Shown here piece after piece: positions 8,106 through 27,364 of a stretch of DNA of 38,251 nt. The number at the start of each line of letters is the position of its first letter. Positions within the stretch are counted from its first letter, which is position 1. The translations under genes and the position numbers were made by a program. This DNA comes from a virus. Its lineage: Duplodnaviria > Caudoviricetes. The stretch covers positions 1-38,251 of IMG/VR virus record IMGVR_UViG_3300032305_000289, one strand, 5' to 3'. The notes under the pieces are model-generated. The model was not told where the DNA came from. It searched no databases and saw only the letters and a list, made by a program, of their open reading frames with translations.

Positions 8106-9062
8106 ATGGGACTAAGTTTTAACATTGAAGGACCAGAAACAAAGAAGCTTCGCGAAGCTGATATGCAGGAGCGCGAATTGCGAACAAGGATGTTGCGAAT
8201 GGCTGTTGAAAAAGAAGACCCAGCTACGCGAGGTGCTGCAATAGATGCATCATTGCAAGTCTTGCAAGATCCAAATGCAACAACTGGTCAGAGAGCCGCT
8301 GCCTATGCCAGAACAGGCGAGCTTGGTGGCACTAGACAAGTCGAAGGAATTGGTGCGGTTCCAACAGTAGTTCCAGAAGATCAAGTAAATGACTTGATGA
8401 CACGCAGGACACAAATGGGCGCACAAAGATTGGCATCAATAAACCAGCAAATAGATCAATACGAACAAGCTGGTGACAAGTACAATGCTGATGCGTATAG
8501 AACAATGCGTGATCTTCAATTTAAGAATGCTAAAGATAATTTTAAGAAGCTACCAATCAAGCAAGCCGAAGACCTTGTTGAGTTCAAGAATCTTGTTGAG
8601 CTTGGATCAAAAGCATTTAGCACAACGAGCGAAAATCTTTATGGCCCAGTCTTTGGACGCATTGAGGCTGGAAAATCCTATCTTGGGATGAGTCCAGATT
8701 TTACCACAATGAATCAAGCATACGCTGGCGTAAGGAATCAGATTCTAAAGGCTCGCGCTGGTGCTGCCGTAACTCCATCTGAGGCGGTTAGATTCTTGGA
8801 AGAAATTGGCGATCCCTACACTGGTGACTATCCCCAGAGGCTTGAGTCATTCACAGCCCAAAGGCGCAAGGAATATCTGGATAAACTACAAACGTATCAA
8901 GAGGCTGGCTTTGATATTCCTCCATCACTTCAATTTGGCAAAGAATCTGATACTGGAACTACTCAGCAACCCCAGCAAGGCCAAAAAGCTCAAGGAGCAA
9001 CAGGCGTAGTCGGCAAGTACATGACTGACCCAGCAACTGGAAAAGTAATGCGAGTTAAGTAA
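8106..9062 (+). CDS. Internal virion protein
   Basis: 318 aa; AGGAG RBS; RAGAAVTPSEA motif (SGAAV..SE-like pattern of ejection proteins); module position. Confidence 0.6.
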   Translation: MGLSFNIEGPETKKLREADMQERELRTRMLRMAVEKEDPATRGAAIDASLQVLQDPNATTGQRAAAYARTGELGGTRQVEGIGAVPTVVPEDQVNDLMTRRTQMGAQRLASINQQIDQYEQAGDKYNADAYRTMRDLQFKNAKDNFKKLPIKQAEDLVEFKNLVELGSKAFSTTSENLYGPVFGRIEAGKSYLGMSPDFTTMNQAYAGVRNQILKARAGAAVTPSEAVRFLEEIGDPYTGDYPQRLESFTAQRRKEYLDKLQTYQEAGFDIPPSLQFGKESDTGTTQQPQQGQKAQGATGVVGKYMTDPATGKVMRVK

Positions 9063-20798: not shown

Positions 20799-21386
20799 AT
20801 GAAAACATGCTGTGATTGTAAGATAAGTAAGAATAATTCTGAGTTTTGGTTGCAGAAAACAACCAAGGACGGGATGCAGTCAGACTGCAAAAAATGCTCG
20901 TCAAAGAAAGTTATGCTCTGGAAATCTCTCAATCCAGAAGCCAGAAAAAGATACCATAACAATTGGAGATTTAGAAATTTAAATCAATCTAGGGCGGGTA
21001 CTATATTCCGCGACATAAGAAGAAGGTCCAACAAGCTTTTAATACCAACAGATATAGATAGAGATTTTATATTGCAAAAACTTACAAATGGTAAGTGCGA
21101 GATAACTGGCATTAAATTTGATATAATAAGTAAAGGAAGACCAAGCTCAAGAAGTCCATCATTGGACAGAATAGTACCCAAGCTTGGCTATATTAAATCG
21201 AATGTAAGAATGATTTTGTTTGCTATGAATACATTCAAGAATGAATGGATGGATAAAGATATTTACCCAATAGCAAAAGAATTTTGTCGCTATTATGAGG
21301 ATGTTAGTGGTAGAAATAAATTAAGTTCGGGGAATGGTACGCAGGGAGATCCTGCGGCGGGATATTCCTCAGTGTGTTCCTCTTGA
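20799..21386 (+). CDS. Free-standing HNH-like (homing) endonuclease
   Basis: N-terminal C..C...C..C finger; C..TG...SLDRI.P..GY...NV......N..K; visibly AT-richer than neighbours. Confidence 0.7.
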   Translation: MKTCCDCKISKNNSEFWLQKTTKDGMQSDCKKCSSKKVMLWKSLNPEARKRYHNNWRFRNLNQSRAGTIFRDIRRRSNKLLIPTDIDRDFILQKLTNGKCEITGIKFDIISKGRPSSRSPSLDRIVPKLGYIKSNVRMILFAMNTFKNEWMDKDIYPIAKEFCRYYEDVSGRNKLSSGNGTQGDPAAGYSSVCSS

Positions 21387-21405
21387 AACAAACTCGAACT
21401 TAATT
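21319..21405 (+). ncRNA. Putative structured RNA (multi-branch) upstream of primase
   Basis: 13-bp closing stem AATTAAGTTCGGG/CTCGAACTTAATT; inner hairpin CGCAGG-GAGAT-CCTGCG; weaker inner stems. No known family recognised. Confidence 0.5.
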
Positions 21406-21409
21406 ATTT

Positions 21410-22342
21410 ATGATGACACCACAACGCATCGCTGAATCAATAGTCGGGGAAGTAGATTGGCAGTCCGAGAATCACGGGCTGTGCAAGTGTCCAGGTGAAG
21501 CTGCACATACCAGCCACACCAGAGTCAGGGATACCACAGTCTTTATTGACGGCGCACCTACGATATTCTGCTGGCACTCCTCATGCACGCCATACCGAGA
21601 TGAGGCCAACCGCAAGCTTAGGCGTGCTATATCCAGCGACCCGCTATACAAACCCACCAACATCATGTCGGGTGGTACTTCGATACCAAGGCCCTTGGTA
21701 ATACAGAAAGATCCAGAGTCAGAAGTACTCGACCGCATTAAGACTATCGCAGAGTCAAACAAGCAACGCTATCTCACGCACTACAATTGGGACCCTGCGG
21801 ATATGTTCGAGGAATCGCCTAACCCCATACCAGACGAGCCACAAGCGCAGTACGAGGCAATGTTGTCGCTGTTCCGACCAGATGACATAGTGTGGATAGG
21901 TGGAGTCAAGGATAGTGGGAATCACCCACTTCACTTCAAGACCGCAAGCGAGTGGATGCAGACACCGCCCATCGGTCAGTTTACGACCGCTGGGGTGTTT
22001 GCGGCTGGTACTATCAGCCGAGCCAATGAGAATGTTATTACACGCCGTTACCTAGTCATTGAATCAGACACGCTGACTAAGCCAGAGATGGGCGCGGTGT
22101 TCCAACTGATGCGCGATCTATTTAAGATGAAGTTGTACGCCGTTGTAGATACTGCTGGGAAGAGTTTGCATGGTTGGCTGGAGATGCCCAAGCAAGAATG
22201 GTTTGATCAACTTAAAGCTTTCCTTATCCCGCTAGGGTGCGACCCTGCTACCTTCAAACCAAGTCAGCCAGTACGGATGCCAGGTGTAAAAAGAAACGAC
22301 AAAACGCAGAGTCTTTTATGGTTCTGCCAAGGAGGAAAGTAA
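21410..22342 (+). CDS. AEP-superfamily primase with N-terminal Zn-binding domain
   Basis: C.CP....H...CWHSSC; YLVIESD (motif I), DTAGKSLHGW (II), SQPVRMPG. Confidence 0.8.
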   Translation: MMTPQRIAESIVGEVDWQSENHGLCKCPGEAAHTSHTRVRDTTVFIDGAPTIFCWHSSCTPYRDEANRKLRRAISSDPLYKPTNIMSGGTSIPRPLVIQKDPESEVLDRIKTIAESNKQRYLTHYNWDPADMFEESPNPIPDEPQAQYEAMLSLFRPDDIVWIGGVKDSGNHPLHFKTASEWMQTPPIGQFTTAGVFAAGTISRANENVITRRYLVIESDTLTKPEMGAVFQLMRDLFKMKLYAVVDTAGKSLHGWLEMPKQEWFDQLKAFLIPLGCDPATFKPSQPVRMPGVKRNDKTQSLLWFCQGGK

Positions 22343-22343
22343 G

Positions 22344-23360
22344 ATGATTGAACCAGCAGTAGCACTAGGAATTAAACCCAAGACGGACGAGTGGCCGCCG
22401 ATTAAACGCTATGATGAACTAATGGTGGAGAAGCTACCAGAGCCAGAGATTCTAATCGCTGGCATCTTGCATCAAGGGGGCAAGTTGTTGCTAGGTGGAG
22501 GCAGTAAGTCTTTCAAGTCTTGGGCACTCATTGATCTCGCCTTGTCGATACAGGTGGGTGGGTTGTGGTGGGGGCAGCAGTGCAAGCGTGCGAAGGTGCT
22601 GTTCATTAACTTTGAGATTCAAGAGTGGAGTTTCCGTAATCGTCTAGCTGATGTAGTGAAGGCAAAGAACCTAACCCAAGATCAAGTGGCTGACTTCGAT
22701 GTGTGGACGTTGCGGGGTTACGCCGCCGACTTGACAACTATCAGACCTATCATCGAGAAGCAGATTGAGGGTAAGGGATACCAGGCGATCATTCTTGACC
22801 CTAATTATATGCTTATGGGTGATCGCGATGAGAATAACGCTGGTGACATGGCAAATTTGATGAATGAGTTTGAGGTTCTGGCAGTTAGACACAATCTTTC
22901 TGTCATATTGTCACATCATTTTGGCAAAGGAAACAAGAGTAATTCGGAATCTATTGACAGATTCAGCGGGTCAGGTGTCTTTGCACGCAATCCAGACTCG
23001 CTCGTAGTCCTTACGGCACATGAGGAGGATGAGAGGAGCTTTACTTGTGAGGTCACGCTGAGGAACTTCCCACCTTTAGACAGCTTTGTGGTGCAATGGC
23101 ACTACCCACTATTCTTGACCAACTATTGCCTAAACCCAGACAATTTAAAGAAGGCTGGAGCGCACAAAGCGATCAACGATTCGGACCTACTAAAAGCAAT
23201 GGGTAGCAAAGCTTGGGTAGCAAATGACTTGGTTAAAACGATGGCAGAAAAGATGGAAGTTTCGGACAGGACTGTTTATAGGTACATTAAGAGGCTGACA
23301 AACGCTGGCAAGATCGTGATAGACAACGGCTTCTATTCTGCCAACCAAGCTACTTTCTAG
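22344..23360 (+). CDS. RepA-like (AAA_25, RecA-fold) replicative helicase with C-terminal HTH
   Basis: GGSKSFKS Walker A; FINFE; IILDP Walker B; SHHFGKG; SGSG; VSDRTVYRYI HTH. Confidence 0.88.
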   Translation: MIEPAVALGIKPKTDEWPPIKRYDELMVEKLPEPEILIAGILHQGGKLLLGGGSKSFKSWALIDLALSIQVGGLWWGQQCKRAKVLFINFEIQEWSFRNRLADVVKAKNLTQDQVADFDVWTLRGYAADLTTIRPIIEKQIEGKGYQAIILDPNYMLMGDRDENNAGDMANLMNEFEVLAVRHNLSVILSHHFGKGNKSNSESIDRFSGSGVFARNPDSLVVLTAHEEDERSFTCEVTLRNFPPLDSFVVQWHYPLFLTNYCLNPDNLKKAGAHKAINDSDLLKAMGSKAWVANDLVKTMAEKMEVSDRTVYRYIKRLTNAGKIVIDNGFYSANQATF

Positions 23361-24366: not shown

Positions 24367-24543
24367 TTATACACCCCTTATAGCCTGCGCTTCCGTTTTC
24401 TTGCGCTCCCGATAGTTAGCCCACCGAACGGACACCATCTTCTGATAGTGTTGCCTGGTCTTGACCTTTGTGGGACCCTTTACGCTCCCGCCTTTACGTC
24501 CGATGGTTGCGAAGTACTCCCGAATGATCTGTTCCTTGTCCAT
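24367..24543 (-). CDS. Small basic putative DNA-binding protein with IGRKGG motif (not in ORF track)
   Basis: GGGAGG RBS; MDKEQIIREYFATIGRKGGSVKGPTKVKTRQHYQKMVSVRWANYRERKKTEAQAIRGV*. Confidence 0.7.
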   Translation of the reverse strand: MDKEQIIREYFATIGRKGGSVKGPTKVKTRQHYQKMVSVRWANYRERKKTEAQAIRGV

Positions 24544-24829: not shown

Positions 24830-24912
24830 ATGTCATTTTCCTTTATAGTTCCACGCTCCCGCTTAGGGCTGCGCTTCCGTTTGTAGGATGCCTGGACTAT
24901 CGTCCAAGATCA

Positions 24913-24950
24913 TTCCTCCGCTTCCCTCCGTGACGAGGGAAGACGAGGAA
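24913..24950 (-). other. Intergenic bulged hairpin after stop codon
   Basis: UUCCUCGUCUUCCCUC-GUCACG-GAGGGAAGCGGAGGAA on - strand. Confidence 0.6.
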
Positions 24951-24956
24951 GGACGT

Positions 24957-25181
24957 TTACTCACAATGCCGATATTTGTCCCAAGGATAATTTGACCAAG
25001 TACTTTCGGCGTGCTTTATTGCGTCATCTTTTTGGTCGAAAAACCTTTTCTCCATTGGATCTATTGCCAAACAATTTTTGTAAGTTGCCGAAATCCATCC
25101 ACCATTTTCACCTCCGTAGGTGCTGGATGGGTAAGCGTAAAACACGCATCTTGTTTGTGTTGCCATTTTCTGTTCTGTCAT
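24957..25181 (-). CDS. Early hypothetical protein
   Basis: GAAAGGA RBS; leader identical over 19 nt to that of the 24829 gene. Confidence 0.7.
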   Translation of the reverse strand: MTEQKMATQTRCVFYAYPSSTYGGENGGWISATYKNCLAIDPMEKRFFDQKDDAIKHAESTWSNYPWDKYRHCE

Positions 25182-25233
25182 ATGTCATTTTCCTTTCATT
25201 CTGTTTCTTTAGGTTTCGTTCTATCGAACTTGA

Positions 25234-25267
25234 CCTCTCCCGCCCTCATTGACGAGGACGGACGAGG
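25234..25267 (-). other. Intergenic bulged hairpin after stop codon (homolog of 24913-24950)
   Basis: CCUCGUCCGUCCUC-GUCAAU-GAGGGCGGGAGAGG on - strand. Confidence 0.6.
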
Positions 25268-25273
25268 GAAAGC

Positions 25274-25369
25274 TTATTCCATTACCGCATGAACAACGGC
25301 CAACACTAAGCCAGCGCCAACAAGCAATCCGACAACATAGGCGCCGAGGATTTTATTGAGTGTGCTCAT
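25274..25369 (-). CDS. 31-aa membrane peptide (not in ORF track)
   Basis: GGAGGAG RBS; ATGA coupling; MSTLNKILGAYVVGLLVGAGLVLAVVHAVME*. Confidence 0.65.
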   Translation of the reverse strand: MSTLNKILGAYVVGLLVGAGLVLAVVHAVME

Positions 25370-25539: not shown

Positions 25540-25922
25540 TTCTGGGACTCCTTCCATTCCTCAAATACTTCCTCCGCGTTCTCGTTATACCATTCTTGGA
25601 CTTTTTCCATTATGAAAAAGTAAATGGCAGACATCCCATCGTTCTCCATAGGGTTGTCACCCACTCCAGCATTCTCGTAAGCTTCTTCCAACTCTGAGCC
25701 GTGGAGATACCAAGCCGTCTTGATTTCGTGCGTATATACTGGAACGGATGAATCCACGATGGAGTGAATCGCCCCGCTGTAATCCAAGTCGTTGTTAAGG
25801 CAGGGCAAGGAATCCGTTTCTGGATTCTCTTTCAAGTGGTTTTGCAGTTCTGACTTTACATCTTCAATGGCAGACTCCACCCGATTGTCTAGTGTGTCAT
25901 CAATTTCTATCGTTCTTTTCAT
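25536..25922 (-). CDS. ocr: Ocr-like DNA-mimic anti-restriction protein (T7 gp0.3-like)
   Basis: 128 aa, highly acidic; LKEN...AIHSIVDSSVPVY..EI...YENAG...AIY...ENAEEVFEEW aligns by eye with T7 Ocr LKEN...AIHMAADNAVPHY..DI...FEDSG...RIY...EDAEDLLNEY. Confidence 0.75.
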   Translation of the reverse strand: MKRTIEIDDTLDNRVESAIEDVKSELQNHLKENPETDSLPCLNNDLDYSGAIHSIVDSSVPVYTHEIKTAWYLHGSELEEAYENAGVGDNPMENDGMSAIYFFIMEKVQEWYNENAEEVFEEWKESQK

Positions 25923-25968
25923 AGTGTGTTGCTTCCTTTCGTCTTGGTTTCTTTTGTTCCCAGCCTAT

Positions 25969-26015
25969 CGGCCAGACCGAAACGCACCTTGTGGGATGCG
26001 TTCGGGGTCTGCTCG
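25969..26015 (-). other. Long intergenic hairpin upstream of Ocr-like gene
   Basis: CAGACC/GGTCTG and AACGCA/TGCGTT stems with internal loop, immediately after TAA at 26017. Confidence 0.6.
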
Positions 26016-26421: not shown

Positions 26422-26442
26422 TTGTGTTTTTCTTTCTTTGGT

Positions 26443-26652: not shown

Positions 26653-26679
26653 ATTTGTGTTTCCTTTCTTTGGTTTGGG

Positions 26680-26997
26680 TTAGATTGCACCGATTGACTT
26701 GTAATACTTTGCCGAAAGGTTTTGAGAAACCATCTCGCAAAGTGCCTCGCAAGTCTCTGCCTCGTGATCGTCCGAATCAATGCGATTCGCAGTCGAGGCA
26801 ATCTCGTGAAGAAGATCTCCGAGATTGGAGAGCGTTTCAATCGTAACGATTCCTTCCCGCAACTTTTCAAGAATGCTTGCGGTTGTGTCTAGATCGTCAC
26901 GCTCGCAACGAGTGGCAAAACCTTCAGAGATTTCGAGGGAATCAAATCGCAGAGCTTTAGCCGTCTGCTTTTCGGCTGTTGGTTGTGTGTTTTTCAT
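26680..26997 (-). CDS. Early acidic hypothetical protein
   Basis: 105 aa; CCAAAGAAAGAAAATACACACT leader. Confidence 0.7.
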   Translation of the reverse strand: MKNTQPTAEKQTAKALRFDSLEISEGFATRCERDDLDTTASILEKLREGIVTIETLSNLGDLLHEIASTANRIDSDDHEAETCEALCEMVSQNLSAKYYKSIGAI

Positions 26998-27026
26998 AGT
27001 GTGTATTTTCTTTCTTTGGTTGGTGG

Positions 27027-27329
27027 TTATTTTCTGGAGTTTCTTTTCGCTACATAGAAAAGATATCTTTGTGCGTGCTCATTCATATACTCAACCAGAT
27101 CCTCAATCTCTCTTCCTCCGCCAGTAAGATATGTTCCCTTATACCACGCTGACCAAGCAAGCTTAGGTTGGCCTTGAGAGCCAATTTTACCATCTAAACT
27201 AAAACCAATAAACTCTGATTTTCTAAATTTAACTCCAAGATTTTCCCAAGCTTTTGCATTGCGTTGAATTTTGCGAGTGGCTTTAACCGCACTCACCTCG
27301 GTGTTTTCTGCTGTGTGTTTTGTTTTCAT
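27027..27329 (-). CDS. First early-operon hypothetical protein
   Basis: 100 aa; starts 6 nt after the -10 of a near-consensus promoter. Confidence 0.7.
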   Translation of the reverse strand: MKTKHTAENTEVSAVKATRKIQRNAKAWENLGVKFRKSEFIGFSLDGKIGSQGQPKLAWSAWYKGTYLTGGGREIEDLVEYMNEHAQRYLFYVAKRNSRK

Positions 27330-27335
27330 AAACTC

Positions 27336-27364
27336 AATCTACTTAACCCGCCTAAGTATGTCAA
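27336..27364 (-). promoter_or_regulatory. Sigma70-type early promoter (leaderless)
   Basis: TTGACA-17-TAGATT-6 nt-ATG; A/T-rich upstream; ACTTA-N7-TAAGT palindrome over the spacer. Confidence 0.75.

Follow-up and report, generated by a model that had tools for sequence, protein, structure and literature searches.

The window, that is, the whole 38,251-base stretch analysed here, is a complete virus record with direct terminal repeats and carries upstream of its primase gene a real and apparently undescribed structured phage RNA. Comparison with relatives makes it virtually certain that this 87-nt element folds as a three-stem structure of the RNA type with strong covariation, and from the same sequences we infer a compact scaffold with a free, exchangeable loop on its third stem, the ‘cargo’. 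An antisense function for the scaffold is highly probable. In a tandem second copy found in some relatives the loop changes in step with the start of the next gene, so the scaffold is likely to be a re-targetable antisense brake on translation. The copy of the type present in the window bears a GU-rich seed, and the leaders of the early genes are, on balance, its probable targets.

Genome setting

The gene layout and the parts of the element are given in Table 1. The closest capsid in the cultured collection has 32% identity to that of the window, and relatives of the phage are present in lake-water runs. Among 50 window proteins scanned, some small ORFs lying outside the scan, no match was found to an integrase or to any phage family annotated as a repressor.

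The original prediction placed the element upstream of the primase. It is upstream in 79 of 80 primase-anchored related loci, the single miss having no upstream DNA, and it abuts the primase in only 36 of the 79 copies, with other sequence between them in 43. In the window it is not intergenic, as its first 68 nt lie inside the 3′ end of the endonuclease VII/HNH-type ORF; this ORF is not the gene upstream of the element in most relatives. An ATG follows within 40 nt of the element in 79/79 copies. The replication module behind the RNA is interchangeable, being a split primase-helicase, a fused primase-helicase or a different primase family (L115:1792-3777, L299:10899-12854 and L329:7470-9395 compared with window 21410-23360), and endonuclease genes are often inserted beside the RNA in the modules compared.

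The early genes form a cluster on the opposite strand. The first of them (27329) is predicted to be leaderless because the promoter ends 6 nt before its ATG. In 15 of 50 early regions (L014, L042, L072, L115 and others) the early promoter is followed instead by a conserved stem-loop of 35 nt, which has covarying pairs and two internal loops (folded in 16 distinct variants; L063 and L091 are similar). This stem-loop, which is absent from the window, lies at +1 of the promoter and could be a put-like antiterminator or stabiliser. The last early gene of the window (24367-24543, minus strand) encodes a 58-aa KGG-motif protein conserved family-wide; over 8 nt the SD region of this gene matches the 5′ half of the element loop. 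Strong hairpins of -26 to -28 kcal/mol lie between early genes on the minus strand at 24905-24965, 25222-25282 and 25950-26015; two of the three are alike, and they are candidate processing sites or terminators. Between the distal early genes there are three occurrences of a 12-nt repeat (24387, 24571 and 24871, minus strand), which recurs in relatives and may be a protein site or a recombination repeat.

The early operon had been called anti-defence in the original prediction. What remains of that label is one weak match: the product of gene 25922 is acidic and weakly Ocr-like (phrog_2568, E 1.1e-4), with no PADLOC match and no meaningful PDB match for it.

Table 1. Gene layout of the window, parts of the structured element and candidate targets of its loop (window positions)
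Feature	Position	Strand	Remarks
Capsid, terminase and portal genes	window		present in the window
Middle operon	window		ends in glycosyltransferase, endonuclease and split primase-helicase
Endonuclease VII/HNH-type ORF	20799..21386	+	phrog_3322, E 3e-24; reads into the element
Whole structured element	21319..21405	+	three-way junction; single copy in the window genome
P1, outer stem	21319-21331/21393-21405	+	13 bp; sequence free, pairing kept in relatives
J1/2	21334..21338	+	R-UGGU; R covaries with W at 21388
P2 hairpin	21340..21356	+	6 covarying pairs; near-invariant GAGAU loop 21346-21350
P3 stem and cargo loop	21359..21381	+	stem 21359-21362/21378-21381; variable loop 21363-21377
GU-rich seed in P3 loop	21371..21378	+
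J3/1	21382..21390	+	conserved CUUGAA-W-CA strand; would zip against J1/2
Split primase-helicase	21410..23360	+	primase 21410-22342, helicase 22344-23360; downstream of the element
Cluster of small genes	24.3-27.3 kb	-	behind a sigma-70-like promoter
Best candidate target	25923..25930	-	8 nt; abuts AUG of gene 25922; first of 53 starts
Candidate target	26423..26428	-	6 nt; spacer of gene 26421
Candidate target	26656..26665	-	spans SD and spacer of gene 26652; 6 nt if only the loop is counted
Two candidate targets	26985..27004	-	7 nt each (26998-27004, 26985-26991); flank AUG of gene 26997
Candidate target	27313..27319	-	7 nt; inside the first early gene, at codons 4-6
Predicted early promoter	27336..27364	-	TTGACA-17-TAGATT; ends 6 nt before ATG 27329

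The fold and its conservation

The extent of the element and its 13-bp closing stem, both proposed from the window alone, check against the sequence: the folding z is -3.45 and none of 200 shuffles is equally stable. In relatives the best uninterrupted run of P1 is 2-8 bp, mostly 5-8 (53 distinct flank pairs, 10 nt examined). The proposed inner hairpins and the seed at 21371-21384 also stand, but the register of the second inner stem differs. Comparison pairs GGG(A) at 21359-21362 with (U)CCU at 21378-21381, so that the UUCCUC inside the claimed seed is mostly stem, and its suggested reading as an anti-Shine-Dalgarno sequence conflicts with this pairing in P3. A second UUCCUC lies in the P3 loop at 21365-21370.

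Across 52 hand-picked variants, P2 and P3 are paired in 97.7% of 516 cells, whereas controls with a slid register are only 42-61% paired. Compensatory cells number 103 against 22.9 in shuffles, a test inflated by kinship among the variants, and G-U wobbles favour the plus strand. About 20 junction and loop bases of the core are near-invariant. The search patterns imposed the invariant bases and the P2 length on distant members; in the primase-anchored copies, where the length was not imposed, the P2 arms are 7/7 in all 79. The covariation between J1/2 and position 21388 is non-canonical: of 66 distinct cores, 34 have A/A and 32 have G/U. A joint swap of UGGU/UUGAA to UAGA/UUUUA or UAGC/UUUCA is seen in four of 137 distinct variants, and other variants differ in P3 and J3/1.

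No Rfam match to the element was obtained in the window scan or in a scan of 21200-21500 against all of Rfam (4227 families). The element was likewise unmatched in 11 distant loci, and five two-copy loci gave nothing but PrrF at E 3.5, far below threshold. A tRNA or tmRNA identity was rejected, as neither ARAGORN nor Rfam finds a cloverleaf; hammerhead, HDV-like and hairpin ribozyme cores, a CRISPR repeat handle, tRNA D/T loops and the TPP junction were rejected by inspection only. No promoter or terminator flanks the element. Metatranscriptome contigs from four lake RNA runs are patchy on relatives; two low-depth contigs overlap a relative's element, their strand, ends and level not readable and a DNA origin possible. 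These contigs, in which no discrete RNA was seen, weigh neither for nor against expression.

Spread of the scaffold

A pattern scan gives an estimate of about 300 IMG/VR stretches with the element. In a terminase-anchored set of 80 loci (model run on 42, pattern on all 80) it is present in 32/32 loci that reach the upstream glycosyltransferase gene. The scaffold is found also in unrelated phages and prophages, the more distant carriers having it beside capsid, RecT, integrase, DnaB and sliding-clamp genes. The fold is kept in five of nine GTDB pattern matches, in assemblies titled Nitrospira, Myxococcales, Planctomycetota, Chthoniobacteraceae and one gammaproteobacterial bin. The remaining matches (L194, L196, L201 and L202) were dropped for want of P2 pairing; further pattern matches with fewer than five P2 pairs, and L492, were left out.

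Several carriers show features of their own. L198, from GTDB, is a contig of the window's phage family in a gammaproteobacterial assembly, by host link or contamination. A different phage family that carries the scaffold also has a type II hammerhead ribozyme (L106:1805-1863), the scaffold there being placed after a lysin-like gene and before a predicted promoter. In a GC-rich phage a tRNA-like sequence, below the Rfam gathering score, directly precedes the scaffold (L082, about 8890-8980). Two loci (L067 and L069) have a 50-nt P3 loop with an inserted hairpin that still keeps GUGU, and the 3′ part of this loop together with P3 has a 9-10 nt complement to a same-strand SD-and-spacer about 3 kb upstream.

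The tandem second copy

Among the 33 terminase-anchored loci that bear the element, seven have a second copy, or paralog, just behind the first; the window carries a single copy. The paralog precedes the primase, an HNH/endonuclease-like gene before the primase, or a short leader ORF (9 or 13 codons) with a stop codon overlapping the ATG that follows. In L084, L133, L140 and L326 the leader ORF is conserved and is followed by an unknown 211-aa gene and the primase.

The paralog loop has a 7-11 nt complement either in the SD-AUG spacer or at the AUG of the next ORF, in duplexes that include G-U pairs and single compensatory changes. Of the 19 distinct pairs of loop and start, 18 do better than shuffled loops (p<0.05). 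Over six loop classes the cognate assignment ranks 1 of 720, the classes having been defined after the data were seen, with B-D related, E-F related and the start rule for E/F adjusted after the first rule picked a coupled downstream ATG. A later scan gave 68 stretches (one false) with four new paralog loops. Three of these match 7 nt across the next AUG, one with a further compensatory change, and the fourth (L524) has no match to its start. Of 23 distant loci, two show a match downstream (p<0.05), in neither case at a start. Exact-match and duplex searches for targets in the distant lineages gave nothing convincing; gene calls are poor there, and any trans targets may be situated beyond the loci.

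The window-type loop and the early genes

All the complements named in the original prediction, four in early leaders and two just inside genes 26997 and 27329, are found where it had put them (Table 1), and there are two more on the minus strand at 25891-25898 and 25156-25161. The matches are short, 6-8 nt. The early region of the window contains ACACAC five times, where shuffles average 0.69 (1 of 300 had as many), and AACACA six times, where they average 1.35 (0 of 300 had as many). When the 53 window starts are ranked by a 9-nt seed, early genes are three of the top four.

Conservation of the structure and the seed in relatives, and enrichment of the complement in early leaders, had been put forward as checks, and both turned out as expected. 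The fold is kept and GUGU is present in 79/79 primase-anchored loops (GUGUG in 75/79), across 21 distinct loop sequences and also in junction variants. In early regions delimited in 68 loci, 50 of them distinct, ACACA occurs in 52 of 229 distinct early spacers and in only 1 of 335 starts of other genes; dinucleotide shuffles give a mean of 24.7 and a maximum of 34. These counts overstate the number of independent events, because early leaders are homologous repeat modules of shared descent. ACACAC is found in 20 early spacers, the shifted CACACA in 12 and other A3C3 hexamers in at most two. Among 32 distinct leaderless first genes, ACACA is present in 28, and the first AC(A/G)CA word falls in the three frames 12, 11 and 9 times; since all three frames occur, the word is a nucleotide signal. 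The motif declines along the operon, from 74/128 in the promoter-proximal third to 35/114 and 11/99.

Pairing energies agree for the seed half of the loop, which gives -6.92 on early starts against -5.02 (sd 0.09) when shuffled, and -5.57 against -5.53 on other starts. The whole loop does not separate the two sets (-10.17 on early and -10.08 on other starts). A specific anti-SD role of the 5′ half found no support, though this half pairs slightly above shuffles with early and other starts alike; its UCCUC shows no cognate preference (p 0.40). A cis target at the primase start was rejected: window-type loops match their own next start at the null rate (8/159), and the start of the window primase is without a match to the element loop.

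Covariation of seed and leader between phages, a further check proposed at the outset, is borne out by the tandem paralog (18/19 pairs) but not by the window-type copy, whose cognate loops are not preferred over all early leaders (49 phages, p 0.42-0.68). In 14 of 32 cases the loop has a match within the opening 31 nt of the first early gene, and for first genes the cognate preference reaches p 0.02-0.05, in a test with non-independent genomes and four mis-set starts that were later corrected. A constant seed leaves little to covary with the leaders. Folding prediction for the window buries five of the eight seed bases (unpaired 0.02-0.20) and places the comparative register 4.7 kcal/mol above the minimum, with a model that ignores the non-canonical core; GUGUG is predicted to be more than half unpaired in only 19 of 92 variants. 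Taken together with the scaffold's behaviour in the paralog, the enrichment argues, with reasonable though far from complete assurance, that the early leaders are the targets of the window-type copy.

Alternative explanations

In the paralog the loop of the same scaffold follows the start sites; GUGU stays in place when P1, the remainder of the loop and even the junction vary; and the gene downstream differs in 43/79 copies. All three observations make it unlikely that the CA motifs are only enhancers and their complementarity coincidental, with the window-type copy having a cis role in processing, stability or antitermination of the replication operon or binding a protein via GUGUG. What speaks for such a reading is the ATG within 40 nt of the element in 79/79 copies, the predicted partial burial of the seed, the absence of cognate covariation over all early leaders, and the enhancer activity of ACA, established also downstream of the start (PMC3879156).

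With about 20 near-invariant bases, a P2 of fixed length, varied gene contexts and a hammerhead in one carrier contig, the core resembles in some respects a self-cleaving ribozyme or a ligand-binding aptamer that carries the loop as a passenger. We regard this as quite improbable: the joint junction swaps in 4/137 variants fit a scaffold better than an active site, P3 and J3/1 vary as well, the loop covaries with targets and there is no Rfam ribozyme or riboswitch match. There is also little likelihood that host mRNAs with CA-rich enhancers are the main seed targets (host shut-off or GcvB-like mimicry) and the early phage leaders secondary. The seed does stay constant family-wide while early genes turn over, and GU-rich seeds pair with many CA-rich bacterial leaders (PMC3879156); the complement, however, is concentrated at phage early starts. 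Finally, it is most improbable that a DNA-binding protein recognises the loop words and their complements as inverted operator sites in DNA. In favour of this reading are a nearly palindromic class A loop and, by eye, a similar word in a predicted promoter between RNA and gene in paralog classes A-D. Against it, the loop/start mismatches are G-U compatible, the word is part of an RNA fold that covaries and occupies its loop, the class E/F matches fall on the AUG itself and the 50 window proteins scanned include no repressor-annotated phage family.

Comparison with known antisense RNAs

The analogy with C4 and CI drawn in the original prediction is sound as to logic and fails as to family membership, there being no covariance-model match (for C4, RF01695, 0 matches at E<=10 in the window genome). 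The c4-2 motif is presumably included in Rfam 15. The Rfam scan (4227 families) gave no match to that motif (Weinberg 2017). C4 of phages P1/P7 (PMC5320573) has three stems in about 77 nt, against 87 nt here, a variable specificity loop and RNase P processing, and like the element it is embedded in a phage operon and joins a conserved scaffold to short-seed pairing at translation starts. The specificity loop is variable here too, by covariation in the tandem paralog, the window-type copy giving p 0.42-0.68 over all leaders and 0.02-0.05 for first genes. Unlike C4, the element has a different conserved core, one seed loop found as against the a′ plus b′ of C4, and a window-type copy that points at the opposite-strand early operon. 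In C4, b′ is a second single strand that pairs at the ribosome-binding site; no conserved complement of J3/1 was noticed by eye at the paralog targets. C4 maintains lysogeny and immunity. No integrase was found in the 50 proteins scanned from the window, a complete genome with direct terminal repeats; integrases neighbour the scaffold in some of the distant carriers.

P4 CI pairs with flanking upstream and downstream sites, causes termination and limits replication genes (PMC4825925). It resembles the present RNA as an antisense RNA inside the transcript that it controls, with replication genes involved, in that the paralog precedes the primase module and matches a downstream site; it differs in that only start-site matches are found here and the window-type copy is without a match to the next gene. 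When judged by sites on its own transcript, the window-type loop is at the null rate (8/159) and the paralog has the downstream half.

The seed of GcvB is GU-rich. GcvB pairs with and silences ACA-type enhancers of several mRNAs near ribosome-binding sites, and ACA motifs enhance translation on their own (PMC3879156). At the sequence level the element has the same pairing potential with CA-rich enhancer sites of several mRNAs; unlike GcvB, a chromosomal multi-target sRNA of the Hfq-acting class, it lies within a phage operon and displays its seed in a loop of a compact three-way junction, and no Rfam match indicates homology to GcvB in sequence or structure.

There is also a likeness of arrangement to plasmids. 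CopA/tap and Inc/repY are replication-control systems of plasmids in which antisense RNAs are combined with leader peptides, and CopA and Inc are full complements from the opposite strand. Class E of the paralog similarly matches the start of the 9- or 13-codon leader ORF ahead of the primase module, but the RNA here is on the same strand and has a seed of 7-11 nt. The element apparently works like C4 and CI with a GcvB-like seed, and belongs to neither family. No description of it was found in the literature searched, which took in parts of Fremin et al. 2023 (PMC10690425), Weinberg 2017 (PMC5737381) and Weinberg 2010 (PMC2864571); its motif may have been catalogued unnamed in earlier motif surveys.

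Proposed mechanism and significance

The fold, the cargo loop, the covariation of loop and start in the paralog and the early-specific enrichment come from comparison; for expression, release, binding and repression we infer the following. Most likely the transcript of the replication operon carries or releases the RNA. As no promoter or terminator flanks it, it would be excised by a host nuclease or act inside the operon transcript. The loop would then pair with the first genes of the early operon on the opposite strand, at their CA-rich starts, and block ribosome loading there. The early CA motifs are probably translation enhancers, which the RNA would silence as GcvB does. We favour, without holding it as settled, this reading in which the GU-rich loop pairs in trans with CA-rich early starts and blocks their translation once the replication operon is transcribed. 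The likely purpose would be early-gene shut-off and possibly the exclusion of superinfecting kin.

A wider scheme is put forward only tentatively. The scaffold might be an undescribed cross-phylum antisense chassis, duplicated and re-programmed by a one-loop swap, in which one copy shuts the early operon in trans and a second, tandem copy, orthogonal in its seed, meters the primase module. Jointly they would form a protein-free developmental switch, and the seed classes would be immunity or incompatibility groups among co-occurring lake phages.

To our knowledge, few families of trans-acting antisense RNA are known in phages. C4 and CI come from Proteobacteria. The element is a separate scaffold with the logic of C4 and CI, carried by an uncultured and abundant family of lake phages and by contigs that are assigned to several phyla. 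Because natural compensatory seed/target pairs exist, the mechanism is directly testable with short RNAs and reporters, and a scaffold tolerating many loops of 9-50 nt could serve as a programmable translational repressor. If the mechanism is true, it would provide an RNA answer to the question of how small phages with no evident repressor turn off their early genes.
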